Notes under the pieces: generated by a model
Told to the model about the DNA's origin: nothing
The model's database searches: none
What the model saw: the letters and a program-made list of their open reading frames with translations, nothing else
Program-made: the position numbers and the translations under genes
Source of the DNA: Formosa sp. Hel1_33_131
GTDB lineage: Bacteria; Bacteroidota; Bacteroidia; Flavobacteriales; Flavobacteriaceae
Assembly: GCF_001735745.1 (NCBI RefSeq)
Contig: NZ_CP017260.1
Span: 2,070,001-2,102,000 of the forward strand
DNA: 32,000 nucleotides
Reading direction: 5' to 3'
In this document: positions 2,846 through 23,238 of the stretch, one piece after another
How positions within the stretch are numbered: position 1 is the stretch's first letter
How the letters are laid out: each line of letters opens with the position of its first letter

Positions 2846-2935
2846 CCGTTCCTTACGCCTTTTGAACCGCTTATTACGTCAATGTGCCGTTTGTTACATG
2901 GTGTTTTGAACTGCTAGGGCTTCTCATTTTCTTTG
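2846..2935 (+). promoter_or_regulatory. triple direct-repeat upstream site (copy A4) plus -7-like box driving the CDS at 2957
   Basis: ccgttccttac at 2846, ccgcttattac at 2867, ccgtttgttac at 2887. tttctttg ends 38 nt after TTAC, and the ATG is 22 nt further on. Confidence 0.6.
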
Positions 2936-2956
2936 TCAAAGAAACATAAATATTAC

Positions 2957-3565
2957 ATGCGTCAAAACTTTACCTTACTTTTGGTTTTATTCAGTCTTTA
3001 TGGTTTTGCACAGTTGTATGTGCAGGAAGGCACGACCCTCAGTTTGGGAAGTCCACAAGCCGTTCTCAGTTCTCAAGAATCTAGCAATCAAATTAATGCC
3101 CCATTCCTTGGTGAGGGCGCACTTATACTCAACAGTGCATCCAAACAACGTCTGACCAGTAGCCAAGATGTTTTGGAACTTCCAACACTGCATATTGAAA
3201 ACGCCGATTTGGTACAACTCCAAACCGCCTTCAACATTCAAAACCAACTGCACGTTGCCCACGGACAACTGACACTGCTTCACCCCATAACACTTCCAAA
3301 TCCTACGTCGCTTGTTTTAGGTCAGTCTGCAGGAATTCTTACAACGCCACAAGGACCATTGGTGTACAACACCCAATTTGAAACTTCAAATCCTTTGGCG
3401 TTTCTGAACATACAACCCTTCTTACAATTTATAGAACCCAAAACACCTCCAACTACCAATTCTGTAGTGTTGGACTTTATACAGCGTTCCAACTTTGTAA
3501 CCTTCATACACACTAATTATAATTGGAACTTTAAACCCTCCACCCCTCCACCAAAAGCGGTTTAA
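2957..3565 (+). CDS. secreted hypothetical protein (signal peptide, no recognisable domain)
   Basis: The ORF-track frame begins at a TTG at 2933. The ATG at 2957 gives MRQNFTLLLVLFSLYGFAQ, a typical signal peptide. Function unknown. Confidence 0.6.
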   Translation: MRQNFTLLLVLFSLYGFAQLYVQEGTTLSLGSPQAVLSSQESSNQINAPFLGEGALILNSASKQRLTSSQDVLELPTLHIENADLVQLQTAFNIQNQLHVAHGQLTLLHPITLPNPTSLVLGQSAGILTTPQGPLVYNTQFETSNPLAFLNIQPFLQFIEPKTPPTTNSVVLDFIQRSNFVTFIHTNYNWNFKPSTPPPKAV

Positions 3566-3741
3566 TAGCAAGAATTAGGGAGTCAGTATTAAGCAAATCT
3601 AATTCTTTATGTCACGTAAAACGCCTCAAATGATAAATGAGAATCTGAAGTGCGTGTGTATTGAACAACAACCAAAAAAAACAAACAATTTTTTAACCCG
3701 AAGTCCAAAACTTCATACTTAACCATAAAACAATAATTATA

Positions 3742-4725
3742 ATGAAACATTTAAAACAACAACTATTAATGGTGCTGTTTGTAGCATCAGGGCTGATGTC
3801 CTTTGCGCAAGTAGGGGTAGGCACCACCGATCCCAAAGCCTCACTAGATGTTAGTGGTGATGCAGCTACTGCCACAAGCGTAGATGGTATCATAGCGCCA
3901 CGCCTTACAGGTGATCAGCTGAAAGCCAAAGATGCTGTGTACACCACAGATCAAAACGGAGCCATTGTCTATGTAACAGCAGCCGTCGGAACATCCACGG
4001 CTAAAACGATCAATGTGACTGCAGCTGGTTATTACTATTATGACAGTACAGTTCCTGTATGGAAGTCAATTGGTGGTGGAAGCGCTTCATCAGCTGGATT
4101 GGTTGCCAATCGTGTTGCTATCAGCAGTATTACTGCAGGAGCCAACGGCGTTTATACCGTTACCGATTCTAACACGCCAAGTGCAGCAGGTTCTCCTATA
4201 TTAGCAACCTATGAAGATGCTGCAGGGAATGTTACTTCTGTAAACATTAACAACCGAACTGCGGGTACTTCCTTTGATGTGACTTTTGCAGCCACACCCG
4301 ATGCCGCAGGATTTCTTAACTACGTATTTCCAACCGCCAATGTGAGTGTGGTTACAGGAGCCACAGGTCCAGCCGGAACAGCCGGAGCAGCCGCAACAGT
4401 CGCGGTAGGTACTGTATCTACATTAGCAGCAGGCGCCACGCCCACTGTTTCCAACTCAGGCACCACAGCCGCTGCTGTGTTAGACTTTGGGTTTGCAGTA
4501 GCCTCTGTATTAAAAGGCACACAAGCAACCGATGGTACCAATGCCGCATTTACAATTAGCAATACCAATATTAGTGCAACTTCTGTTGTCACCGTCAGCT
4601 ACCAAAATAGTAGCAACGAAATTATTAACCACGCCATTACGGCGATTGCAGCAGGTTCTTTTACAGTACAATTTGCAGCCACACCCGCTTCTGGTGGGAA
4701 GATCCTTTATACGGTAGTCAACTAA
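3742..4725 (+). CDS. secreted Ala/Thr/Gly-rich fibre-like surface protein
   Basis: Signal peptide ...SFAQ. The N-terminal module VGVGTTDPKASLDVSG...GIIAPRLTGDQ...GAIVYVT...YYYYD...WKSIGGG is followed by low-complexity GPAGTAGAAATVAVG segments. Confidence 0.7.
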   Translation: MKHLKQQLLMVLFVASGLMSFAQVGVGTTDPKASLDVSGDAATATSVDGIIAPRLTGDQLKAKDAVYTTDQNGAIVYVTAAVGTSTAKTINVTAAGYYYYDSTVPVWKSIGGGSASSAGLVANRVAISSITAGANGVYTVTDSNTPSAAGSPILATYEDAAGNVTSVNINNRTAGTSFDVTFAATPDAAGFLNYVFPTANVSVVTGATGPAGTAGAAATVAVGTVSTLAAGATPTVSNSGTTAAAVLDFGFAVASVLKGTQATDGTNAAFTISNTNISATSVVTVSYQNSSNEIINHAITAIAAGSFTVQFAATPASGGKILYTVVN

Positions 4726-4777
4726 ATTTTTAAACCCAATAAAAACAATAAAGAATTAATAATTAATAATTTAAACC

Positions 4778-5608
4778 ATGAAAAACAAGAACTTATTTTT
4801 AACCCTTTGCCTTATGGCAATGACGGTCTTTAGTTTTGCACAAGTGCAAAAAATAGACAACCTACAAGTAAATACAACGATGACTCCACCCGTTGTGACT
4901 AAAGTACAAATGGATGCCTTAACTCCCACAGCAGGCTTGATGGTGTATTGTACGGATTGTTCTCCAAAATGGCTTTATGTGGCTGATGGATCTAGCTTTG
5001 CAACTATAGGAGGAGGGCTAACTGCAGGAGTTATCCTTGCAGCGGGTGAGATATTTTCGCCTACCGGTAAAATATGGATGGACAAAAACCTTGGTGCAGC
5101 TTCTGTAGCAACAAGTTCTTCAGATGCAGCCTCTTATGGAGATTTATACCAATGGGGTAGAAAAGATGATGGGCACCAAATACGTACTAGCGCAACTGCT
5201 GCTGGCCCTGTAGCTGCGGGTGCAGAAGGTGCAAATTTTATTACCAGTATCACCATTCCTAATGATTGGTTATCTACACAAGATGGTAACCGTTGGTATG
5301 GAGAACTTTCTGTAAACGACCCTTGTCCTGCAGGCTATAGAGTACCTAGTGGTTCTGAGTGGCAAGCAGAACGTAATACTTGGGCAACAAAAAATAATGC
5401 AGGTGCTTTTACCGCACTTAAACTTCCAGTTGCTGGTTACCGCCACTTCATTAATGGTGCGCTCGGCAACTTGGGTAGCACCGGCGGCTATTGGTCAAGT
5501 ACGGTTAGTGGTACTTACGCTCGCCGCCTAGGCTTCAGTAGCAGTGATGCCACCATGTACAGTCTCCCTCGTGCTTACGGCTTTAGTGTACGTTGCATTA
5601 AGGATTAA
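4778..5608 (+). CDS. FISUMP-domain (Fibrobacter succinogenes major paralogous domain, TIGR02145-like) secreted protein
   Basis: IWMDKNLGA...YGDLYQWGR..DGH...DPCPAGYRVPS..EW...LKLPVAGYR...GGYWSST...FSVRCIKD is the family signature. A signal peptide is present. Confidence 0.8.
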   Translation: MKNKNLFLTLCLMAMTVFSFAQVQKIDNLQVNTTMTPPVVTKVQMDALTPTAGLMVYCTDCSPKWLYVADGSSFATIGGGLTAGVILAAGEIFSPTGKIWMDKNLGAASVATSSSDAASYGDLYQWGRKDDGHQIRTSATAAGPVAAGAEGANFITSITIPNDWLSTQDGNRWYGELSVNDPCPAGYRVPSGSEWQAERNTWATKNNAGAFTALKLPVAGYRHFINGALGNLGSTGGYWSSTVSGTYARRLGFSSSDATMYSLPRAYGFSVRCIKD

Positions 5609-5721: not shown

Positions 5722-6030
5722 AGTATTAAGATGAAAGTGGAAAGTGGAAAGTGGAAAGTGGAAAGTTAAAAGTTAAAAGTGAAAAGTGAAAAGTGAAAAG
5801 TGAAGAGTTAAGAGTTATGAGTTAAAAGTTAAGAGTTAAAAGTGAAAAGTGAAAAGTGAAGAGTTAAGAGTTATGAGTTAAAAGTGAAGAGTTAAAAGTG
5901 AAGAGTTAAAAGTTAAGAGTTATGAGTTATGAGTTAAGAGTTACAAGACGTAAGACTAAAAAGTAATGAGTACTAAGTATTAAGTATTAAGAAAAAAGAG
6001 CATAGAGCATAGAAAATAGAAAAGAACACG
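5722..6030 (+). repeat. largest heptanucleotide array (purine-rich on + strand), about 44 units
   Basis: agtggaa x4, agttaaa x2, agtgaaa x3, agtgaag, agttaag, agttatg and so on. The register is kept for about 220 bp, then slips by 2 nt and continues as agtaatg agtacta agtatta x2 agagcat x2. Confidence 0.9.
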
Positions 6031-7402: not shown

Positions 7403-7493
7403 AGTGATGAGTGATGAGTGATGAGTGATGAGTGATGAGTGATGAGTGATGAGTGATGAGTGATGAGTTGTGAGTGAAAAGAAAATAGAACCT
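7403..7493 (+). repeat. heptad tract: 9 perfect agtgatg units plus 4 degenerate units, starting at the nucleotide after the stop codon
   Basis: The perfect units span 7403-7465. They are followed by agttgtg agtgaaa agaaaat agaacct. Confidence 0.95.
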
Positions 7494-9446: not shown

Positions 9447-9790
9447 TTGGGGCAAGCCAACGCTGCAATCCTACCTTCGGTAGGTAAGCTCATTAAAAGG
9501 ACTCGTAAGTGTTCAACAGATTACTTCGTCCTGCGTCCTCGTAATGACGGGAGTGTATTGTCATTGCGAACGAAGTGCGGCAATCTGTTTATAAGGAGTT
9601 GTATGTGTTCAACAGATTACTTCGTCCTGCATCCTCGTAATGACGGGAGTGTATTGTCATTGCGAACGAAGTGCGGCAATCTGTTTATTAGGAGTTCGAT
9701 GTTCAACAGATTACTTCGTCGTACCTCCTCGTAATGACGGGTGTGTATTGTCATTGCGAACGAAGTGCGGCAATCTATTTATAAAATCAA
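9447..9790. repeat. array of palindromic repeat units upstream of the GIY-YIG gene (about 3.5 units, period 84-96 bp)
   Basis: Left arms gtgtattgtcattgcgaacgaagtgcggcaatctg alternate with right arms cagattacttcgtc(c/g)t(g/a)c(g/c)tcctcgtaatgacggg. tcattgcgaa occurs at 9561, 9657 and 9741. Confidence 0.9.
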
Positions 9791-9795
9791 TAAAA

Positions 9796-10095
9796 ATGCA
9801 AAAATCACATGTATATTTTTTAACAAACAAGAATCATACGGTCATTTATATTGGTGTTACAAGCTATTTATTAAAACGAATCTACCAACACAAAACGAAA
9901 GTATATAAGGGCTTTACTTCCAGATACAATTGTGATCAACTGGTCTATGTTGAGGCTTTTGATAGTATTGTAGAAGCAATCGGTAGAGAGAAACAACTAA
10001 AAGCAGGAAACCGAAAACGTAAAGAAGCATTGATAAATTTAGAGAATCCAGATTGGTTGGATTTAAGTGAGGGTTGGGTGTTCTGTTTTGATTAA
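9796..10095 (+). CDS. small GIY-YIG nuclease-family protein (UPF0213-like)
   Basis: MQKSHVYFLTNKNHTVIYIGVTSYLLKRIYQHK...REKQLK..NRKRK..LI. The ORF-track frame extends upstream into repeat DNA, so the ATG at 9796 is taken as the start. Confidence 0.85.
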   Translation: MQKSHVYFLTNKNHTVIYIGVTSYLLKRIYQHKTKVYKGFTSRYNCDQLVYVEAFDSIVEAIGREKQLKAGNRKRKEALINLENPDWLDLSEGWVFCFD

Positions 10096-10098
10096 CGC

Positions 10099-10688
10099 GT
10101 GTATTGTCATTGCGTCTTTTGTGTATTGTCATTGCGAGCGCAGCGCGGCAATCTGTTCAAAAGGAGTTCGATGTTCAACAGATTACTTCGTCGTACCTCC
10201 TCGTAATGACGGGAGTGTATTGTCATTGCGAACGAAGTGCGGCAATCTGTTTATAAGGAGTTGTATGTGTTCAACAGATTACTTCGTCGTACCTCCTCGT
10301 AATGACGGGTGTGTATTGTCATTGCGAACGAAGTGCGGCAATCTGTTTATAAGGAGTTGTATGTGTTCAACAGATTACTTCGTCCTGCGTCCTCGTAATG
10401 ACGGGAGTGTATTGTCATTGCGAACGAAGTACGGCAATCTGTTCAAAAGTAGTTGTATGTGTTCAACAGATTACTTCGTCCTTCGTCCTCGTAATGACGG
10501 CAGTGTGTTACTTCGTCCTTCGTCCTCGTAATGACGGGAGTGTATTGTCATTGCGAACGAAGTGCGGCAATCTGTTCAAAAGTAGTTGTATGTGTTCAAC
10601 AGATTACTTCGTCGTACCTCCTCGTAATGACGGGAGTGTGTTACTTCGTCCTTCGTCCTCGTAATGACGGCAGTGTGTTACTTCGTCT
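10099..10688. repeat. array of palindromic repeat units downstream of the GIY-YIG gene (about 6 full and several partial units)
   Basis: Same arms as 9447-9790. Left arms are at about 10099, 10121, 10215, 10309, 10406 and 10540. Extra partial right arms (gttacttcgtccttcgtcctcgtaatgacgg) lie near 10505, 10639 and 10677. Confidence 0.9.
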
Positions 10689-10706: not shown

Positions 10707-10796
10707 CCGTTCCTTACACGAAACAGTACCTAGGTTACGTCAATGTGCCGTTTGTTACATGACGCTTTTAGGGGTCTGGTTTTATAGCTTTCTTTG
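10707..10796 (+). promoter_or_regulatory. triple direct-repeat upstream site (copy A5) plus -7-like box
   Basis: ccgttccttac at 10707, a degenerate acctaggttac at 10728, ccgtttgttac at 10748. tttctttg ends 38 nt after TTAC, the same box as in copy A4. Confidence 0.5.
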
Positions 10797-10959: not shown

Positions 10960-11178
10960 ATGTTTAGAGACGGAGAAAGCCATGCATTTGAGGTGTTTGT
11001 TAAAATTCCTTCCATGTATGGTGACACTCTGAATTTTCAGATGGAACATTTAACCCAACCAACTCTAAAACGCGCTGTTACGGGATTTACACAAATAGAT
11101 GAATTTATGAATGATAAAAATAATGAAGCAGGAACTATGGGGCAAGTCCTCTGTACCGCGGGAGCGGGAATAGACTGA
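10960..11178 (+). CDS. doubtful small ORF (72 aa) downstream of copy A5
   Basis: It is the only open frame in 10,800-11,250 and has no recognisable family. It ends ...NNEAGTMGQVLCTAGAGID. It could equally be non-coding. Confidence 0.25.
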   Translation: MFRDGESHAFEVFVKIPSMYGDTLNFQMEHLTQPTLKRAVTGFTQIDEFMNDKNNEAGTMGQVLCTAGAGID

Positions 11179-11251
11179 CTAGACCCTGTTTCGAAAGCCG
11201 ATTCAAAATATTTGATTATAATGGAGAATCGGCACTGCCTGCTTTTGAAAA

Positions 11252-11285
11252 AAGTGAACGCCACGCTAAAGCGTGGTAAATGGAG
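11252..11285 (-). repeat. inverted copy of the boundary hairpin (ttccatttaccacgctttagcgtggcgttcactt)
   Basis: The reverse complement matches 2671-2704 and the metG terminator core. On the minus strand a T-run follows it, so it would terminate leftward transcription coming out of the heptad array. Confidence 0.7.
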
Positions 11286-11575
11286 AAGTGAAAAATGGGA
11301 ATTAGTAAATGGAAAATGGAAAGTGAAAAGTTAATAATGGGAAGTGATGAAGATAAAAGTGAAAAATGGGAAGTAGTAAGCACAAAGTTAAAAGTTAAAA
11401 GTGAAAAATGGGAAGTAGTAAGCACAAAGTTAAAAGTTAAAAGTTAAAAGTGAAAAATGGGAAGTAGTAAGCACAAAGTTAAAAGTTAAAAGTTAAAAGT
11501 GAAAAATGGGAAGTAGTAAGTGGAAAGTTAAAAGTGGAATATGACTTAAGACGAAAAGGGACGTAGGACGTAAGA
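11286..11575 (+). repeat. heptanucleotide array with 42/49/49-bp higher-order repeats
   Basis: gtgaaaaatggg recurs at 11359, 11401, 11450 and 11499. The spacings are 6, 7 and 7 heptads, and the units differ by one agttaaa. Confidence 0.9.
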
Positions 11576-11748: not shown

Positions 11749-12747
11749 ATGGCGGGATCAAACATTACCTTAAAACAATTGTCATCTATCTTAGGGGTGT
11801 CTATTTCAACCATTTCCAAAGCGTTGAATGACAGCCATGAGATCAGTGATGTGACCAAAAAACGCATTGTGGAGATGGCAAAGTTGCACAACTATCAGCC
11901 AAATAAAATTGCAGTGGGTCTTAAATCTGGAAAAACCAATACCATTGCGGTGGTGATTCCGAGTGTTCAAAATAGTTTTTTTGCACGGGCTTTGTATGGC
12001 ATTGAAAGTCTGATTTCGGAAACTAATTTTAATATTATTGTGTGTCTCACCAAAGAATCCCATGCCAAGGAAGTGGAAACATTTAATATGTTGTCCAATG
12101 GTGTTGTGGATGGTTTTATAGTGGCGGTTTGTGAAGAAACACAGAGTTTACAAAATTACGATCATTTTACGAATGTGATGGAAAATGGCAAATCGGTTGT
12201 GATGTTTGACCGCGTGATTGATTCTGTAAACTGCGGAAAAGTGACCACCAATGATTTTACAGCTTTGTCCGAAGCCACTCAAAAACTGATTAGTTCGGAT
12301 CGAAAAAACATTGTGTTACTCTCTACAATTCATAAGTTGAACGTTGGAAAACAACGGACACAAGGCTATTTGAAAGCGATGAAAGCGGCTGGTTTTACGC
12401 CTACTGTTTTGGAGTCGGACGAACAGCAGGCAGGTGCCGTGATGGTGGAGTATTTAAATGCCCACCCTGTTGATGCCATTATTGCATTGGACACCGATGC
12501 GTCTTTGGCGGCCTTAAAAGCGGTGAAAATTTCTGGAAAGCAAATTCCAAAGGATGTGGCGGTGATTGGTTATGTTAGCGAGCGTATGGCACACAACCTT
12601 ACGCCAGAATTAACGACGATCAATCAACACAGTTATACGATTGGGAATGCAGCAGCACGCATGATTGTGGAGTCCATCAGAACCAAATCTAAGGAGATTC
12701 AGCAAGTGGTGATCAGTTCTACTTTGTCGGTACGCGATTCGTCTTAA
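11749..12747 (+). CDS. LacI-family transcriptional regulator
   Basis: N-terminal HTH ITLKQLSSILGVSISTISKALND...ISDVTKKRIVEMAKLHNYQPN plus a periplasmic-binding-protein-like sugar-binding core. Confidence 0.9.
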   Translation: MAGSNITLKQLSSILGVSISTISKALNDSHEISDVTKKRIVEMAKLHNYQPNKIAVGLKSGKTNTIAVVIPSVQNSFFARALYGIESLISETNFNIIVCLTKESHAKEVETFNMLSNGVVDGFIVAVCEETQSLQNYDHFTNVMENGKSVVMFDRVIDSVNCGKVTTNDFTALSEATQKLISSDRKNIVLLSTIHKLNVGKQRTQGYLKAMKAAGFTPTVLESDEQQAGAVMVEYLNAHPVDAIIALDTDASLAALKAVKISGKQIPKDVAVIGYVSERMAHNLTPELTTINQHSYTIGNAAARMIVESIRTKSKEIQQVVISSTLSVRDSS

Positions 12748-13200: not shown

Positions 13201-14183
13201 ATGCAATCAGAAATTATCATTTATCAAACTGAAGATGGGCAAACTAAAATACAAACACGTTTAGATAATGAAACGGTATGGCTCACCATAGAACAATTGA
13301 GTGAATTATTTCAAAAATCACGTTCTACCATTAATGAACATATTTTAAACATTTTTAAGGAAGGAGAACTTGAAAAAGAAGCTTCAATGAGAAAAATCGG
13401 AATTTCCGATTTTTCTACCAAACCAACCAATATATACAACCTTGATGTGATTATTTCAGTAGGCTATCGTGTAAAATCTCACAGGGGAGTACAGTTTCGT
13501 AAATGGGCAACCGCACGACTTAAAGAATATATCATCAAAGGTTTTACAATGAATGATGACCTATTAAAAGAAGCAGGAGGAGGTAATTATTTTGATGAGT
13601 TGCTAGAACGAATCAGAGATATTCGCTCATCTGAAAAAGTATTTTGGCGTAAGGTATTAGATATCTATGCAACCAGTATTGACTACGATTCACAAGTAGA
13701 AGAGTCAAAAACTTTTTTTAAGACCATTCAAAATAAAATGCACTGGGCAGTCCATGGCAATACTGCATCCGAAATTATTTATAAACGAGTAAATGCCAAT
13801 GCCAAGCAACTAGGATTAACCAATTACAAAGGAGAAAAACCAATTAAAAGTAAACGGAAATTGCAAAAAATTATCTTAATAATGAAGAACTCGATGTCTT
13901 AAATCGAATTGTTACTGCATATCTTGAAATCGCAGAGTTACAAGCTTTGAATCGCAAGCCTATGTATATGCACGATTGGATTGTACGTCTTGATGATTTT
14001 TTAAAAATGACAGGAAATAAGGTGCTTGATAATGCAGGGAGTGTTAGTCATAAAAAAGCCATTGATAAAGCACATGGCGAGTATGAAAAATTTAAACAAA
14101 AGGCTAAAGAAGCTTTAAGTAAGGTAGAGGAACATTTTATCAAACAAATAGATGCTACAACAAAACAGTTAAAGAAAAAATAA
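13201..14183 (+). pseudogene. rhuM: RhuM-family virulence-associated protein gene, disrupted by a 1-nt frameshift
   Basis: ORFs 13201-13902 and 13947-14183 are the N- and C-terminal parts of one RhuM-like protein. The IAKNYLNNEELDVLNRIVTAYLEIAELQALNRKPMYM frame opens right after 13854-13857 (aaacgg), which is consistent with the loss of one base. Confidence 0.8.
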
Positions 14184-14394: not shown

Positions 14395-14733
14395 TTACTG
14401 TTTGTTTCCCAACATTAGAACTTCATTCACCACCACTTCTGTGATGTAACGTTTTTCGCCTTCTTTGGTTTCATAGCTTCTGGAAGTTAATTTGCCTTCA
14501 ACCGCAATTTCTTTGCCTTTGGTGACGTAGTTTTCAATGATTTCAGCAGTTTTGTTCCATGCAACGAGATTATGCCAATCTGTTTTGGTTTGTTTTTGTC
14601 CATCGGCATCTTTGTAATACTCGTTTGTTGCTAATGAAAATTTTGCTAATTTTTTTCCACTGTCTAAAGTGATAATTTCTGGGTCATTTCCCAAGTTTCC
14701 AATTAACTGTACTTTGTTTCTGAGTGTGTTCAT
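14395..14733 (-). CDS. ssb: single-stranded DNA-binding protein (short form, no acidic C-terminal tip)
   Basis: RNKVQLIGNLGNDPE...KFSLATNE...TDWHNLVAWNKTAEI..NYVTKGKEIAVEGKL..RSY is an OB-fold SSB. It ends in ...LMLGNKQ rather than D-D-D-I-P-F. Confidence 0.9.
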   Translation of the reverse strand: MNTLRNKVQLIGNLGNDPEIITLDSGKKLAKFSLATNEYYKDADGQKQTKTDWHNLVAWNKTAEIIENYVTKGKEIAVEGKLTSRSYETKEGEKRYITEVVVNEVLMLGNKQ

Positions 14734-14835: not shown

Positions 14836-14867
14836 TCGTTTGTAATTACTTGTAGTCGTTTGTAATT
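14836..14867 (+). promoter_or_regulatory. two direct repeats tcgtttgtaatt with 20-bp phasing (variant of the CCGTTTGTTAC site)
   Basis: The repeats are at 14836-14847 and 14856-14867, upstream of the 91-bp repeat block. Confidence 0.4.
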
Positions 14868-14914
14868 GAATAAATTTTTAGTATATTTCGGGTCTGTAAC
14901 CAGAAATCAATTGA

Positions 14915-15187
14915 CATGAACCATCCATCACTAAAACTTGATACTCAATAAAAATGCTTAAAATGGATGCACCATGTGACCTTTGAAAAACAATAAATAG
15001 ATATACATGAACCATCCATTACTAAAATTTGATATTCAATAAAAATGCTTAAAATGGATGCACCATGTGACCTTTGAAAAACAATAAATAGATATACATG
15101 AACCATCCATCACTAAAACTTGATACTCAATAAAAATGCTTAAAATGGATGCACCATGTGACCTTTAAAAAACAATAAATAGATATA
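14915..15187 (+). repeat. 3 x 91-bp perfect-register tandem repeat abutting the start codon of the zinc-ribbon gene
   Basis: Units start at 14915, 15006 and 15097. Each begins catgaa, like the real start at 15188. The middle unit differs from both outer units by three C-to-T changes. Confidence 0.95.
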
Positions 15188-15188
15188 C

Positions 15189-15536
15189 ATGAAAAAGCAA
15201 TGCCCAGAGTGTAACGATCCAATTATTGGACGAACGGACAAGAAATTTTGTAGTGATGGCTGTCGCAATAGCTATAACAACCGTGTGAATAAAGACCAGA
15301 AAAACCTGATCCGAAATATCAACAACCGATTGCGAAAAAATTGGCGTATTCTGGAAGCTCTGAATCCGCATCAAAAAACAAAATCGACACGGGATAAACT
15401 TATTTCAGCAGGGTTTGACTTTAATTATTTCACCAGTATTTATACAACAAAGTCAGGGACGGTTTACTATTTTGTGTACGACCAAGGTTATTTGCCCTTA
15501 GAAAACCATTATTATGCGTTGGTGAAACGAGAATAG
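15189..15536 (+). CDS. zinc-ribbon protein of unknown function
   Basis: CPECN...17 aa...FCSDGCRNSYNN is a four-Cys motif at the N-terminus. The basic middle region suggests nucleic-acid binding. Confidence 0.7.
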   Translation: MKKQCPECNDPIIGRTDKKFCSDGCRNSYNNRVNKDQKNLIRNINNRLRKNWRILEALNPHQKTKSTRDKLISAGFDFNYFTSIYTTKSGTVYYFVYDQGYLPLENHYYALVKRE

Positions 15537-15560: not shown

Positions 15561-15650
15561 CCGTTTACCCCCCCAAAACCCCCGTTTGTTACGTCATTTG
15601 ACCGTTGGTTACATGAGCGTTGCGAGGAGTTTAAAGGCTGTATATATTTG
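15561..15650 (+). promoter_or_regulatory. triple direct-repeat upstream site (copy B1) plus consensus -7 box
   Basis: ccgtttac at 15561, ccgtttgttac at 15582, ccgttggttac at 15602. tatatttg ends 38 nt after TTAC. Confidence 0.6.
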
Positions 15651-15656
15651 ACGTAT

Positions 15657-15728
15657 GTAATTTAATATCTTACTTAAAAGTTAAATTGGTTAATTTTGAA
15701 AAAACATCACATTCGTGATGTTTTTTTT
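15657..15728 (+). ncRNA. candidate small RNA B1 (about 72 nt)
   Basis: Variable 5' part, invariant aaaagttaaattggttaatttt, then a terminator aacatcac attc gtgatgtt + T8. Confidence 0.55.
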
Positions 15729-15748: not shown

Positions 15749-15839
15749 TCCGTTTATACATTAAATACGTCCGTTTATTACATGAATTGTCCGTTCGTTA
15801 CATAGTGATTGTAAGAACTGTAAAGGGTATGTATATTTG
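15749..15839 (+). promoter_or_regulatory. triple direct-repeat upstream site (copy B2) plus consensus -7 box
   Basis: ccgtttatac at 15749, ccgtttattac at 15771, ccgttcgttac at 15791. tatatttg ends 38 nt after TTAC. Confidence 0.6.
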
Positions 15840-15845
15840 AAGTGT

Positions 15846-15918
15846 ATAATATCTTTATATTATTAAAAGTTAAATTGGTTAATTTTGAAAAACACCACAT
15901 TCGTGGTGTTTTTTTTTT
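15846..15918 (+). ncRNA. candidate small RNA B2
   Basis: Same invariant core. The terminator acaccac attc gtggtgt shows a compensatory T-A to C-G change relative to B1. Confidence 0.55.
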
Positions 15919-15938: not shown

Positions 15939-16028
15939 CCGTTTATACATTAAATACGCCCGTTTATTACGTTAAACGTCCGTTCGGTACATGACGGTTG
16001 TAAGAACTGTAAAGGTTATATATATTTG
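15939..16028 (+). promoter_or_regulatory. triple direct-repeat upstream site (copy B3) plus consensus -7 box
   Basis: ccgtttatac at 15939, ccgtttattac at 15960, ccgttcggtac at 15980. tatatttg ends 38 nt after the repeat. Confidence 0.6.
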
Positions 16029-16034
16029 GTGAAC

Positions 16035-16108
16035 GTAATATCTACTTATTACTAAAAAGTTAAATTGGTTAATTTTGGAAAAACACCACCCTCGTGGTGT
16101 TTTTTTTT
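16035..16108 (+). ncRNA. candidate small RNA B3
   Basis: Same invariant core. Terminator acaccac cctc gtggtgt + T9. Confidence 0.55.
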
Positions 16109-16178: not shown

Positions 16179-16880
16179 ATGAAACAATTAAAATACACAA
16201 TCTTACTAGCCCTTTGTTTTTCAATGCAAATTCAGGCACAAAACCAGACGACCTTAGTAGCTCATTACAAGGCCTTTTATGCTCAGATGCAACAACAAGG
16301 CGATATCCAAGGTGTGATTAATGCGATGACTCACCTCGTTTTATTAGAACCCAACGTAAAACGTAAAGATACGTTAGCAGCGCTTTATATGAACGAAGGG
16401 AAGTATGTACAAGCTTTAAATCTAATTGGAGTTGAACTGTTAGAATCAGACACCAATTTAGCAACTGAAGTGAAAGCCGTTAGTTTGAAATCTCTCAACG
16501 AGCCCAAACGTGCCATTGAACACTATGAAGTTCTTTACAAGCAAAAACGAACTGTTTCTCTTGCTTATGAATTAGCGGATTTGAAAATCCAAACGGATGA
16601 TCTTACAGGGGCATCTTTAAACATAACCTACGGAATAGCCAATGCTACAACCGATATGATGAAGCCTTACTATGAAACACAAACGCCGTATCAAGTACCA
16701 GTTTTGGCAGGGTTTATGTATTTAAAAGCGATCGCTAAATTTAGAGAGAATCCAGAAACAAATCACGATGCTTCTATTTTAATCTTAAATGAAGCCTTAC
16801 AATTAGCGCCTAATTTTAATATGGCAAACTTAGCTATTGATGCGATACGCGCACAAAAAGAAGCTCCAAAAACAGAGTAA
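16179..16880 (+). CDS. secreted helical-repeat (TPR-like) hypothetical protein
   Basis: The ATG at 16179 gives MKQLKYTILLALCFSMQIQAQ, a signal peptide. The ORF-track start at 16158 is a TTG. Confidence 0.65.
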   Translation: MKQLKYTILLALCFSMQIQAQNQTTLVAHYKAFYAQMQQQGDIQGVINAMTHLVLLEPNVKRKDTLAALYMNEGKYVQALNLIGVELLESDTNLATEVKAVSLKSLNEPKRAIEHYEVLYKQKRTVSLAYELADLKIQTDDLTGASLNITYGIANATTDMMKPYYETQTPYQVPVLAGFMYLKAIAKFRENPETNHDASILILNEALQLAPNFNMANLAIDAIRAQKEAPKTE

Positions 16881-19243: not shown

Positions 19244-22200
19244 CTAATTTAAGATGAGCTTTCGAGTGGTTTGTTGGTTGTTTGCTTCAATTTGTAAAAA
19301 ATAGATCCCACTGGAGTAGGCTTCCATTTGCAATGGAAATGGCGCTCCAGAATTAATTTGTTTTTTAGTGTACACGACTTTTCCAGTGATGTCCGTGACA
19401 CGAAGATCAAAAGGAGTGCTGTTATTTAATTTAACATAAAACACATCTTTGGATGGATTTGGATATACTGAAATTTGGTCGATTTGAAAATTATCAGCAT
19501 CCAATGTAGTGCCATACACAAACAAGTCATCGATAACAACGCCTTCATTATTCACCATTTGGTCTGAATGAAATACCATTCTAAAAATCATATTAGATTC
19601 TGAGCTAAAAGCTGCTAGGTCGTAAGAGTATGGTGTGAGAGTGCTATCGGTTCCAGTCCATTGTTCGCCAACACAGTTAGCACAATTAGCTAAACTGCTA
19701 TTGTACCAGTTAAAATCTTCTGCGGTTCCTAGTACATTCCAATCAACTCCTTGGTTTGTTGAATACTGAACATAGGCGACGTCGTAGTCTGATTCTAAAT
19801 CGAACGCCATTTGAAAATTCAATTCTGGATTCGCAATGGTAGTCAAGTCGTAACAATTAGACACAAGGTAGCCTTTTGAGTTGTCTGCATAATTGCCACT
19901 CAAGTTAGTGGCATAGACATTTGTTCCGGATGCCGTTTCATTAAGTAGAGTTCCGGTAGGAGTTCCACGTTGCCAAACATCTCCAGACTCATTAATAACA
20001 ATAAGTTCGTCACTGGTATTTTCAAACATATTTACTGTTCCAGTTTCGCTAGTTTCATTCACATAAAACGTAATTTCAGCACTGTTGTTGTTGGTGAAAG
20101 AATCATTGTTAATGGTAGTTGTCGCAGATAGCGTATGGATTCCTGCGGCTAAAGTCATGTCACCTAAGTCCAAAATAGCGGTCGCTTGGGAGGCGATGGC
20201 TCCAAACCATGAGAGTGGTATCTCATTTCCACCGTCAAGAGTATAGGTAATGTCAACAGTGTTTATGCTATTTTGTCCATTATTTAGTACCCTTAATTGT
20301 GGAGCGACTGCTCCGCAATTGAGTTGCATACTTATTGGGTTCTCAATAGCAATTAAAAAAATATCGTTAGCTGCTAAAGCTTCGGTCTGCAAATCACTTC
20401 GCCAAATGCCACGTCCGTGAGTTGCCGCAGTAATATTATAGTCTGGGATGTTGATACTTAAATCTCTGACATCAGTATTTGGAAGGTTTGTTTCAAAAAG
20501 ACCCCAATCGTTTGTAGTGTCGTCGTATCTGTAAACGCCTAAGCTTGTCCCAAGGTATAGCGCATTAGTTGGGGAGAAAGGCTGGTGTTTGATAATGTTT
20601 TTTGTAACATTAGGAAGCGTTCCTGTGATGTCTGTAAAATTACTCCCTTGATCCGTAGATCTATAAACCTTTCCATCACCTCCGCTTGTGGTGATGTAAA
20701 GGATGGTATTGTCATTGTTATTAACTTCAATGGACGTGATATTACTTGTAAAATCTTGAATCAGTGAAAATGTAACACCATGATTTACACTTTTATGAAG
20801 TTCATGATGTACGCTACTATTCACATCGTCATAATAAGAAAAACTTACATACATAATATCTGAGTTGATAGGGTCGAGTTCTAAAACCTCAATATTAGCT
20901 TCAAAAGTATCTGAGATTTTGGTCCAACCGGCTGAACCAAAGTTGTAAACGCTGCCATAGCCGGCATACAATTCACTGTCTTTGTTTATTGAAAGTGGAG
21001 TAATCCAGTTTCCTACTTCATTAGTGGGAGCTCCATAACCATTCGTACTTCCATTTTGACCTGAATTAGTGTTTATGTTTAGACTACCACCGCGCTGCGT
21101 AAAACCATAATAGATGTTATCGTTGTTAGGATCAACCACTCCTTCCATCCCATCTCCTCCATGGTAATTACTCCATTGTTGATCCCGTCCAAAACCTCCA
21201 TTGTCCTGAAGTCCTCCTGCCATTTTATTTGAATCTTGTTTGGATACAGAAATTCTATAAAACTGACTAATTCCCAATCCTGGAGACAAATCCGTAAATG
21301 TGCTACCTGCATCTGTCGATTCAAAAATACCTCCATCGGAGCCTACAAATATGCTACCATTAAAAGCGCGGATGAAATGAATGTCAGCGTGGGTGTATGA
21401 TTCGGTTCGGCTGTACCACTGATTAAGTTGTGAAAATGAATCCCCTCCATCACTCGATTTCCAGACATTTAAACAGCCCACATAAATTTCATTTTCATTG
21501 GTGTTAGAAACAGCAATGGCTAAATCATACCAGGATTGATCTCCTTCAAAGATATTAACAGTGTTCTCCATTTGTGTAAAAGTTGTACCACTGTCAGATG
21601 ATTTGTAAATTCCTTGGTAGGTGCTATCTGAATTTGATGCCACCATATAAACAAGGTTGCCATTCGCTGGCGTGATATCAATAAAAAGACGTCCTGAAGT
21701 CGTTGGCAGTCCCTCTGTAATTTGTGTAAACGTTTCCCCTGCATCTGTGGATTTGTAAAATTCATCATTCGTAGTTGCATAAATGATATTTGAATTATTA
21801 GGTTTTACTTTGAGGTCTCTAAAACTACCAGATTGTTTGTTTGTCCAGTCATCACCACCATTTACAGATTTAAAAATCCCATTACTGGTTGCAACCCAAA
21901 GCATGTTGGTATTGTCTGGGTTTATATAGATTTCAGAGGTTCTGTATGGCGTGTTCGTAGGATTCATTCCTGTTTGCTGCCAATTGGCACCTGCATCTGT
22001 TGATTTCCAAATTCCTACACTTGTAGAACTGTTATAGTCATCATCGCCAGTGGCGATGTAAAGAATGTCTGTATTGCTTGGATCGATAGCGATTCCAGAA
22101 ACCCCAATTTGAGGTAAGAAGTCCGTCAAAGGAATGTACGTAGCCCCCGCATCTGTGGATTTCCAAATCCCACCTGCAGGCGATCCAACATAAATAACAT

Positions 22201-22639
22201 CTGAATTGTCTGGATCCACAATGATGGTATTGACACGACCAAGGTTTGCACTGTTAGTCGATCGATTTAAAAAATCAGTGGGCCCCATAGATTCCCAATC
22301 ACTTTCATCGGTTCTTACAGCCGTTGAACGTCGTTGTGATTTCTGAGAATTTTTAGCTTCCCATACGTCCCACAATTCTTGAGAGGTTGGTAAAAACCCA
22401 CCGGCATTCACATAATTTTGCCAAAAGGACTCCCAACGTTTGAAGGGTTTGTATCCACTTCCTTTAACGTCTGTGTCACGGGTTTCCCAATAGGTGTTTC
22501 CGGCATCGACAATTTCTTTGAATGTTAAAGGATTGGCTTTGGTGTTTTTCAGGCCTTTCATCCAAGGCGTTCCAGAATCGACTTGCGCATTGGAAAAAAG
22601 ACAGTAAAAGGTACAGAGTACAATAAGAAGAGTTCTCAT
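19244..22639 (-). CDS. large BNR/Asp-box (sortilin-like) repeat surface protein with a T9SS C-terminal sorting domain
   Basis: At least 8 S-x-D-x-G-x-T-F/W/Y Asp-boxes (KSTDAGATY, KSTDAGANW, KSTDAGETF and others). The C-terminus ISVYPNPSKDVFYV...GIYFLQIE...KLILN is a type A Por/T9SS tail. Confidence 0.85.
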   Translation of the reverse strand: MRTLLIVLCTFYCLFSNAQVDSGTPWMKGLKNTKANPLTFKEIVDAGNTYWETRDTDVKGSGYKPFKRWESFWQNYVNAGGFLPTSQELWDVWEAKNSQKSQRRSTAVRTDESDWESMGPTDFLNRSTNSANLGRVNTIIVDPDNSDVIYVGSPAGGIWKSTDAGATYIPLTDFLPQIGVSGIAIDPSNTDILYIATGDDDYNSSTSVGIWKSTDAGANWQQTGMNPTNTPYRTSEIYINPDNTNMLWVATSNGIFKSVNGGDDWTNKQSGSFRDLKVKPNNSNIIYATTNDEFYKSTDAGETFTQITEGLPTTSGRLFIDITPANGNLVYMVASNSDSTYQGIYKSSDSGTTFTQMENTVNIFEGDQSWYDLAIAVSNTNENEIYVGCLNVWKSSDGGDSFSQLNQWYSRTESYTHADIHFIRAFNGSIFVGSDGGIFESTDAGSTFTDLSPGLGISQFYRISVSKQDSNKMAGGLQDNGGFGRDQQWSNYHGGDGMEGVVDPNNDNIYYGFTQRGGSLNINTNSGQNGSTNGYGAPTNEVGNWITPLSINKDSELYAGYGSVYNFGSAGWTKISDTFEANIEVLELDPINSDIMYVSFSYYDDVNSSVHHELHKSVNHGVTFSLIQDFTSNITSIEVNNNDNTILYITTSGGDGKVYRSTDQGSNFTDITGTLPNVTKNIIKHQPFSPTNALYLGTSLGVYRYDDTTNDWGLFETNLPNTDVRDLSINIPDYNITAATHGRGIWRSDLQTEALAANDIFLIAIENPISMQLNCGAVAPQLRVLNNGQNSINTVDITYTLDGGNEIPLSWFGAIASQATAILDLGDMTLAAGIHTLSATTTINNDSFTNNNSAEITFYVNETSETGTVNMFENTSDELIVINESGDVWQRGTPTGTLLNETASGTNVYATNLSGNYADNSKGYLVSNCYDLTTIANPELNFQMAFDLESDYDVAYVQYSTNQGVDWNVLGTAEDFNWYNSSLANCANCVGEQWTGTDSTLTPYSYDLAAFSSESNMIFRMVFHSDQMVNNEGVVIDDLFVYGTTLDADNFQIDQISVYPNPSKDVFYVKLNNSTPFDLRVTDITGKVVYTKKQINSGAPFPLQMEAYSSGIYFLQIEANNQQTTRKLILN

Positions 22640-22704
22640 AATAGTTAAATTGGTTGGTTAATATAGTTTGTCTTCTTTTTAAGAATACGGTTTAGTGTAA
22701 AAAA

Positions 22705-23238
22705 TTAAATTGGTTTTGTAATGCGTTGCGCTTCTTTTTCGCGCGTTTTATTTATTTGAAATATTAAATTGGTATGTGATTTAATGAGATTGACTTTTGT
22801 CTGTTCGGCTTCCTTTAAGTCTGTATCCTCCACACTGTAAAGTTCGTGTAATTTACGAGCTAAGGTTTCGGTGACTTTAACACGTGCCAAAATACTGTTT
22901 GTTTTTAAGGATTTAGGGACGCTTTTTTTAATGTCTAAAAACAGTTGATTTATATCTTCAATGGGTTGTTTGAAAAAGATAGGATCGCCATTTTTAAGGT
23001 TTTTTATGGCGGTATCTAAAAGGGGGTAGTTGGGCCAGTCCGAAAATTCTTCGGGCACTGAACTGTTTGAAACAGGAGTATCTTGTTCTGGAGCTTCTTC
23101 TAGCGTATCGAGTACTCTATTAACCTGAGGTAGTGCAGGTGATTTAGCAGGTGCTTCTTTACAGCTTTGAATCCACAGAAGTGCACAAAAGCTTAGAATG
23201 GAATAAAGAACTCTGTTTTTTTTAAATTGTAAAATCAC
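22705..23238 (-). CDS. hypothetical lipoprotein
   Basis: GTG start. The lipobox-like LLWIQSC is present, but no recognisable domain. Confidence 0.55.
   Translation of the reverse strand: MILQFKKNRVLYSILSFCALLWIQSCKEAPAKSPALPQVNRVLDTLEEAPEQDTPVSNSSVPEEFSDWPNYPLLDTAIKNLKNGDPIFFKQPIEDINQLFLDIKKSVPKSLKTNSILARVKVTETLARKLHELYSVEDTDLKEAEQTKVNLIKSHTNLIFQINKTREKEAQRITKPI

Follow-up and report, generated by a model that had tools for sequence, protein, structure and literature searches.

Eight times on one strand of a 32,000-nucleotide stretch of the Formosa sp. Hel1_33_131 chromosome (contig NZ_CP017260.1, positions 2,070,001 to 2,102,000; the whole stretch is called the window below, and coordinates refer to it), three short direct repeats stand at nearly constant spacing in front of a -7 promoter box. 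The question raised by this arrangement, termed the module, is which protein reads the repeats and what it controls. The answer proposed here, to which we assign a somewhat better than even chance, is that a single transcription activator binds each module at three sites and that this protein is most likely a response regulator of the LytTR family; it is drawn from sequence comparison. The modules probably mark an undescribed, conventionally built LytTR-like activator regulon in Bacteroidota.

Exact copies of the repeat word CCGTTNNTTAC number 15 in the window and all lie on the + strand; dinucleotide-preserving shuffles yield a mean of 0.23 and a maximum of 2. The window matches group into eight modules, each of three direct repeats, and reading of the sequence together with alignment of the eight regions bore out all 24 repeat positions given in a preliminary description of this DNA. 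Nine of the 24 repeats are mismatched copies with at most 4 mismatches, the worst among the weakest distal repeats; examples of repeats are found at 496 (CCGTTCCGTCC), 536 (CTGTTTGTTAC), 2398 (TGTTTTATTAC), 2867 (CCGCTTATTAC), and 15980 (CCGTTCGGTAC). The spacings claimed earlier also proved correct: the proximal pair is 20 bp apart in 8/8 modules, and the distal pair is separated by 20 bp (modules at 496 and 1178), 21 bp (2377, 2846, 10707, 15561, and 15939), or 22 bp (15749). A TTTG-ending -7 box, described as ending exactly 38 nt past the last TTAC, does so in six of the eight modules (ends at 2466, 2935, 10796, 15650, 15839, and 16028). In the two that deviate (496 and 1178) the box is a degenerate TTAATTG with its end at +37, a variant also present in the orthologous unit of L047 (L numbers denote material from other genomes); these two modules are local duplicates of each other, the duplication of ~260 bp comprising the module and a downstream small RNA (sRNA) unit, sRNA A. 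A position weight matrix (PWM) derived from related genomes and then applied to the window recovers all eight modules, again on the + strand only, the sole extra match being a one-repeat-shifted echo of the module at 1178. The modules are the following.

496-546, + strand: module 1, with repeats at 496, 516, and 536, a degenerate -7 box (TTAATTG) at 577-583, and a PWM score of 56.4
1178-1228, + strand: module 2, with repeats at 1178, 1198, and 1218; PWM score 64.4
2377-2428, + strand: module 3, with repeats at 2377, 2398, and 2418 and the -7 box TTTATTTG at 2459-2466; PWM score 37.7
2846-2897, + strand: module 4, on which the preliminary description centered, with repeats at 2846, 2867, and 2887; PWM score 47.9
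2928-2935, + strand: -7 box of module 4, TTTCTTTG, ending 38 nt past TTAC
10707-10796, + strand: module 5, with repeats at 10707, 10728, and 10748 and the -7 box TTTCTTTG at 10789-10796; PWM score 38.4
15561-15650, + strand: module 6, with repeats at 15561, 15582, and 15602, a -33 TTG, and the -7 box TATATTTG at 15643-15650; PWM score 58.8
15749-15839, + strand: module 7, with repeats at 15749, 15771, and 15791, a -33 TTG at 15809-15811, and a -7 box at 15832-15839; PWM score 55.4
15939-16028, + strand: module 8, with repeats at 15939, 15960, and 15980 and a -7 box at 16021-16028; PWM score 54.0

Beyond the window, an exact-pattern scan with the proximal two repeats was run through one genome for each of 185,579 species. 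It retrieved 67 stretches, about 54 of which lie in ~22 genomes of marine Flavobacteriaceae (Formosa and relatives), several per genome; the remaining stretches look like chance matches in unrelated coding sequence, and a scan of viral contigs gave zero module matches. The canonical module of most relatives consists of three copies of a 20-bp unit, CCGTTTATTACGTCAAATGG, the last copy ending CCGTTTGTTACAT, and is cleaner than its counterparts in the window, whose nearest relative is a metagenome-assembled genome (MAG) of an uncultured Formosa sp. (L040/L054, 92-95% identity). Sorting domains of the type IX secretion system encoded in the window mark it as Bacteroidota DNA. The conservation of phasing in orthologous loci, which the preliminary description had treated as decisive, was found across the ~22 genomes. 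When 79 modules in 57 loci were located by the proximal repeat alone, with the other positions left floating, the middle-to-proximal spacing was 20 bp throughout (79/79) and the distal-to-middle spacing measured 20 bp for 38 modules and 21 bp for 26. A TTG ending 10 nt past TTAC, at -33, occurs in 42/79 modules, which sets its start 8 nt beyond the 11-mer and 10 nt beyond the 9-mer core. A TAnnTTTG box (at least 5/6 specified bases) is present in 60/79, with its end 38 nt past TTAC in 49 of these 60 and 39 nt past it in 5. Because most of the 57 loci had come through a pattern that fixes the 20-bp spacing, phasing was retested on loci fetched by protein, in which successive single repeats are most often 20 bp (21 cases) or 21 bp (7 cases) apart. 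All three repeats keep the CC(G) start and the TTAC end. The idea of a reused upstream module with a fixed -7 box was thereby upheld well outside the DNA on which it was formed.

The promoter downstream of the repeats is of the ordinary Bacteroidota sigma-A type, which combines a -7 TAnnTTTG box with a -33 TTG ~19-21 nt upstream; the -7 motif and its position, -12 to -5 in Flavobacterium psychrophilum, are from published work (PMC9723704). With the -7 box placed at -12 to -5, the repeat centers fall at about -48, -68, and -88 relative to the predicted transcription start point, directly upstream of a normal -33/-7 promoter and within one nucleotide of the activator geometry suggested previously (near -49, -69, and -89).

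Both the repeat word and its phasing had been likened to LytTR sites, and word, spacing, and position before the -33 do all fit published examples. AlgR sites include CCGTTCGTC, CCGTTTGTC, and CCGTTTGGC (PMC4064291), and CCGTTTGTT and CCGTTCGTT agree with footprinted AlgR 9-mers at 8/9 positions (PMC4064291). LytTR direct repeats mostly have a 12-bp spacer, at times 11 or 13 bp, and are biased to a position 10 bp upstream of the -35 (PMC6193735). The spacer of the 9-bp repeats is 11-12 bp in most modules (period 20-21 bp), which lies within that 11-13-bp range, and the modules stand ~10 bp upstream of the -35-equivalent. The likeness extends to the wider family of sites, including those of AlgR, AgrA at agr P2/P3, and HdrR/BrsR as well as the ComE, PlnC/D, and VirR boxes, which are imperfect ~9-13-bp direct repeats with a (C)GTT core and 11-13-bp spacers (20-22-bp period), ~10 bp upstream of the -35-equivalent (PMC4064291, PMC6193735, PMC4227749).

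A candidate regulator is encoded among the modules of relatives of the window. It was found by a six-frame probe and then Pfam annotation, and its orthologues were fetched from metagenomes and assemblies. The regulator is a 253-aa protein with Response_reg and LytTR domains, and the gene of a PF06580 histidine kinase, which in the L066 homologue at least has TPR repeats at its N-terminus, adjoins it on the opposite strand, a linkage of sensor kinase and LytTR regulator like that of known LytTR systems. One orthologous regulator-kinase group lies among modules in 10 loci (L014, L066, L072, L104, L105, L110, L111, L113, L115, and L116), and in an eleventh, L023, a kinase fragment stands beside three modules. 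The loci are of two types. Type 1 (L014, L066, L072, and L104) reads SulP-TetR-(module, OmpA)-kinase-regulator-(module, sRNA)-Y_Y_Y-SusC/D. Type 2 (L105, L110, L111, L113, L115, and L116) reads fatty-acid desaturase-(module, OmpA)-GT4-(module, type IX secretion system (T9SS) protein)-kinase-regulator-Y_Y_Y-SusC/D; the modules beside the kinase fragment of L023 are those of type 2, and L054, from the nearest relative of the window, retains the left part of such a locus. The kinase-regulator pair of L014 and L066 is placed between two modules, with an sRNA-driving module within ~20 nt of the regulator stop codon and a separate module preceding the OmpA gene that neighbors the kinase. A module-driven sRNA follows the regulator stop codon by 20-140 nt in L014, L066, L072, and L104. 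Every orthologue locus whose flank reaches the OmpA promoter has at least one module. The surroundings of paralogous LytTR regulators (23-38% identity, L073-L103), 272 kb in all, contain no PWM match of 20 or above, and no modules are found near paralogues at 43-50% identity (L106, L107, and L114). Conservation of the DNA-binding domain within the regulator orthogroup equals or exceeds that of the receiver (71-76% vs 57-67% in distant members). A PDB sequence search with the regulator returned receiver domains only.

The position of a LytTR regulator gene directly beside a regulatory-RNA gene whose promoter carries direct-repeat sites (putative here) recalls the AgrA-RNAIII and VirR-VR-RNA systems. 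The present sRNAs differ from those RNAs in being ~65-80 nt long, multicopy, scattered, and co-oriented downstream of the regulator rather than divergent from it, and no peptide-pheromone genes were seen here.

In the mechanism that we propose, the partner PF06580-type sensor kinase would phosphorylate the regulator, and the phosphorylated protein would occupy the repeats cooperatively, its three sites lying on one helix face immediately upstream of the sigma-A promoter (-33 TTG, -7 TAnnTTTG). Once bound, it would recruit or stabilize RNA polymerase at otherwise weak promoters, with activation rather than repression as the predicted outcome. The output of the window would be six small RNAs (three of sRNA A and three of a second family, sRNA B), one secreted-protein gene cluster, and one further transcript; that of related genomes would add OmpA-family outer-membrane proteins with thrombospondin-3 (TSP3) repeats, T9SS cargo, and other signal-peptide proteins. 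Such a regulon would remodel the cell surface, partly through base-pairing RNAs.

Several observations weigh against the assignment to a LytTR protein. No LytTR domain is encoded in the 32-kb window, as judged from Pfam scans and a six-frame phmmer probe and as the preliminary description had stated. Characterized LytTR sites are usually pairs of repeats bound by a dimer, with a 12-bp spacer; nearly all modules instead have three phased repeats with a strict 11-bp proximal spacer (20-bp spacing), set before a Bacteroidota -33/-7 promoter. Application of the PWM to the linked loci placed no module before the gene of the regulator or that of the kinase; autoregulation, a property of the agr, com, and blp systems, is thus not evident here. 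The best-conserved part of the distal repeats in canonical modules is ATTACGTCA and not CCGTT. Seven species-level genomes (L006, L028, L029, L032, L034, L049, and L063) are without the OmpA-kinase-regulator cassette at the syntenic site, where the arrangement is TetR-(module, sRNA B)-Y_Y_Y, and keep 3-8 well-conserved modules each; likewise, the MAG of L067, in which the cassette is represented by a remnant, retains intact sRNA B modules. The retention of modules without the cassette implies that the linked regulator is not the sole binder in those genomes, unless a copy lies elsewhere or the MAG contigs are deletion variants. Either the cassette-less genomes encode the regulator elsewhere or have a paralogue of like specificity, or their contigs are deletion variants, or another binder is at work.

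If another binder is at work generally, the repeats could be activator sites of an unlinked, non-LytTR regulator that reads phased direct repeats, for instance of the AraC/XylS or OmpR/PhoB type, which we consider unlikely but worth keeping in mind. The intact modules of cassette-less genomes would be accounted for, and the strongly conserved distal-repeat block ATTACGTCA lies outside any published LytTR consensus. AraC/XylS-type half-sites, moreover, are direct repeats with a period of ~21 bp just upstream of the -35, as are those of the module. The internal structure of the module unit nonetheless misfits such a protein: its conserved blocks start 7 bp apart, too close for the two helix-turn-helix motifs of one AraC monomer, which are 10-11 bp apart. 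No linked AraC gene was found, neither an AraC nor an OmpR-type gene recurs beside the modules across ~60 loci, and the CCGTT core, the spacing, and the -33 distance all fit LytTR. A binder encoded next door is improbable, even though in type 1 and cassette-less loci the TetR-family gene is always divergent from a module and a module-driven sRNA always precedes the gene of the Y_Y_Y/LuxR-type one-component regulator (Y_Y_Y/GerE). TetR proteins repress as dimers from palindromic operators, whereas the modules consist of direct repeats placed as for an activator; no module stands between Y_Y_Y and the adjacent SusC/SusD genes, its expected targets; and neither gene is near most modules, including all eight in the window. 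On these grounds both TetR and Y_Y_Y/LuxR are unlikely binders.

That the module has no regulator of its own and is the conserved core of a duplicated or mobile repeat that spread with its cargo is scarcely credible. Duplication has occurred, both in the ~260-bp repeat that contains modules 1 and 2 and in the 189-bp tandem array of three sRNA B units, and recombination between modules apparently deletes the intervening cassette. The flanks and the downstream units nevertheless differ from copy to copy (two sRNA families and at least eight unrelated protein families), and conservation is confined to the repeats and promoter boxes, at exact spacing across ~22 genomes and at a fixed distance upstream of a transcription unit, which is not how a miniature inverted-repeat transposable element (MITE) would appear. 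Nor are there inverted termini, a transposase, or viral copies. A mobile-repeat origin is therefore discounted, given unrelated flanks and cargo and fixed promoter geometry. Also set aside were a palindromic reading of the 20-bp unit (CCGTTT...AAATGG) that would suit a dimeric helix-turn-helix protein but whose AAATGG half is not conserved in the lineage of the window, and the LacI gene at 11749-12747, which recurs near modules through synteny and belongs to a family that binds palindromes. A two-repeat element at 14836-14867, previously presented as a variant of the module, does exist, and 8 genomes conserve it, but with another geometry: the second repeat and the -33 TTTG of a separate conserved promoter, which precedes a Zn-ribbon gene, overlap, and the element receives no PWM score. 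It is a different element and no copy of the module.

What the LytTR-like activator would control can be read from the units downstream of the modules. Those described earlier as short and terminator-ended resolve into two conserved small-RNA families; all units of the window, with their neighbors, are the following.

590-653, + strand: sRNA A copy 1, with a 5' hairpin (GAATTT/AAATTC), an A-rich stretch, and a terminator hairpin with T-run; 5' end predicted
1272-1335, + strand: sRNA A copy 2; 5' end likewise predicted
2472-2549, + strand: sRNA A-like copy 3, diverged, with the terminator kept and the 5' hairpin kept through changed bases
2957-5608, + strand: genes after module 4, encoding proteins of 202 aa (2957-3565, with a signal peptide), 327 aa (3742-4725), and 276 aa (4778-5608, FISUMP/Fib_succ_major)
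10960-11178, + strand: 72-aa open reading frame (ORF) after module 5, separated from it by an AT-rich leader, with no family match and of uncertain gene status
15656-15728, + strand: sRNA B copy 1, with a 5' hairpin, the invariant AAGTTAAATTGGTTAATT, and a terminator; 5' end predicted
15845-15918, + strand: sRNA B copy 2
16034-16108, + strand: sRNA B copy 3
16179-16880, + strand: 233-aa TPR-like protein with a signal peptide, the downstream neighbor of sRNA B, conserved as such across all lineages, with its own -7-like box, TACTTTTG
22643-22655, - strand: speculative candidate target site of sRNA B, AACCAATTTAACT, a 13-nt perfect complement of the seed

sRNA A follows the modules at 496, 1178, and 2377 and is ~65-80 nt long, with a 5' hairpin, an A-rich stretch, and an intrinsic terminator. 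Five copies from three genomes preserve both hairpin and terminator, the structure of copy 1 recurring in L017 and L047. A ParD/ParE toxin-antitoxin pair lies between copies 2 and 3 (1530-2071). sRNA B, an RNA-like unit of ~75 nt, follows the modules at 15561, 15749, and 15939, with which it forms the 189-bp tandem array. Its layout, a variable 5' hairpin followed by AAGTTAAATTGGTTAATT and a terminator, is common to 34 distinct copies from many genomes; the 18-nt seed is invariant, and 5/9 terminator pairs covary. sRNA B always adjoins either the 233-aa TPR-like protein or the Y_Y_Y/LuxR regulator. The units have their own promoter, an intrinsic terminator, no ORF, and a conserved unpaired region, as expected of predicted trans-acting base-pairing sRNAs. 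Neither family is matched in Rfam: scanning the window at gathering thresholds and the sRNA regions by E-value gave tRNA-Phe and subthreshold noise only. The published F. psychrophilum sRNA list likewise has no match to either family, and its tables contain no sRNA carrying the sRNA B seed; literature string searches with the repeat word and the sRNA seed retrieved nothing relevant.

Paralogous sRNAs that each have the same upstream activator site are familiar from Qrr1-5/LuxO, RsmX/Y/Z/GacA, and OmrA/B/OmpR. As in those systems, the paralogues here share one invariant single-stranded region; the regulator family and the promoter type are different, and there are neither GGA motifs nor a sigma-54 promoter. 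A target for sRNA B can be suggested only speculatively. The single candidate is the mRNA of a T9SS Sortilin/BNR gene (19244-22639), in which a perfect 13-nt complement of the seed ends 3 nt before the ATG; the predicted duplex with 22643-22655 has an energy of -15.5 kcal/mol, compared with a mean of -6.4 (standard deviation 2.5) for 23 start regions in the window. Upstream of the same gene, (A)ACCAATTTAA occurs three times at a spacing of ~58-60 nt (22643-22780, - strand), and the last copy is the 13-nt complement itself. Ten-nucleotide matches in the leader of the SulP transporter gave duplex energies no better than those of shuffled seeds, and that leader was rejected as a target. A seed match overlapping a start codon in L022 belongs to a protein unrelated to the window candidate and therefore provides no evidence of a conserved target.

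The protein-coding members begin, in the window, with the genes after module 4. As previously reported, this module is close upstream of a signal-peptide gene: 21 nt separate the end of its -7 box (2935) from the ATG (2957). Orthologous modules precede the same gene in L039 and L030, and the three genes at 2957-5608 are predicted to form one operon. Taken over the window and its relatives, module-driven units comprise sRNA A, sRNA B, OmpA-family outer-membrane proteins with TSP3 repeats, T9SS cargo, and several signal-peptide families, among them one with a QVGIGT N-terminus, the MRQ...FAQLYV family of window gene 2957, and a lipoprotein with a weak SprT-like match. All module-driven proteins but one, a 136-aa membrane-like ORF in L060, have an export signal, and export signals on nearly all protein members indicate that the regulon concerns the cell surface.

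The modules may also bear on the uneven presence of the sensor cassette itself. The cassette is flanked by two directly repeated modules (1433-1465 and 5888-5913 in L066; 3977-4033 in L072), and cassette-less relatives have exactly one module at the junction. When L066 is compared with L028, L032, L049, and L063, homology breaks at the two modules, and L072 and L034 are 91.7% identical from the module onward. Cassette-plus and cassette-minus states both occur in at least three sub-lineages, as defined by sRNA terminator subtype, so the cassette has been gained or, more likely, lost repeatedly. The module junctions suggest loss through recombination between modules, that is, between the putative binding sites of the regulator. 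L067 preserves a deletion variant (2870-3140) in which an OmpA-type module and leader are fused to the last 45 regulator codons, directly upstream of the Y_Y_Y gene; L115 is the intact version of this locus. Intact regulators with a C-terminus identical to the L067 remnant are represented by P0031 and P0053, and OmpA::LytTR fusion ORFs are present in public data (P0064 and P0081).

A broader proposal, which we advance tentatively and regard as doubtful, would join these strands: an undescribed LytTR two-component system of abundant marine Flavobacteriaceae may set surface composition (OmpA/TSP3 and T9SS cargo) largely through multicopy sRNAs with an invariant 18-nt seed, and its module-bracketed cassette may be repeatedly deleted by recombination in natural populations, giving an agr-like on/off polymorphism. 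No description of the regulon, the regulator, or the sRNAs was found in the literature, nor was a characterized LytTR regulon for Bacteroidota or a trans-acting sRNA for marine Flavobacteriaceae. These bacteria are key degraders of algal-bloom polysaccharides, and their regulation beyond that by regulators of polysaccharide utilization loci is almost unexplored. The module supplies a sharp cis-element, with which a simple PWM would find the whole regulon, together with a candidate sensor-regulator pair and two new sRNA families; the 18-nt seed of one of these is perfectly conserved. Should the linkage hold, the module would also account for the recurrent presence/absence polymorphism of the sensor cassette.

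Other features of the window accompany the modules or lie between them. Simple-repeat arrays of 7 and 14 nt (TCTATTT, TCACTTA, AAAGTGA, AAAGTTA, and similar), pyrimidine-rich on one strand, fill many intergenic regions, often beside modules (741-963, 2239-2359, 5734-5947, 7403-7477, and 11350-11535). Tandem units of 96 and 133 bp with a hairpin-forming core, GTCATTGCGAACGAAGTGCGGCAATC, occupy 9508-10687 and overlap ORFs, one of which has a GIY-YIG nuclease domain (9640-10095). A RhuM-family gene is apparently split into two ORFs (13201-13902 and 13947-14183) beside a gene for single-stranded DNA-binding protein (14395-14733, - strand), and this region (13201-14183 with the latter gene) may be a remnant of an integrated element. 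The promoter element before the Zn-ribbon gene mentioned above, TTTCGTTTGTAATTAyTTGTAGTCGTTTGTAATT (14836-15193), is present in 8 genomes; in the window and L040, three 91-bp units are inserted between it and the gene (15189-15536). Finally, a GC-rich hairpin, GTGAACGCCACGCTTTAGCGTGGCGTTCAC, and its variants are found at gene ends on both strands (369-398, 2686-2705, and 11247-11275) and may be a terminator or an element resembling repetitive extragenic palindromic (REP) sequences.

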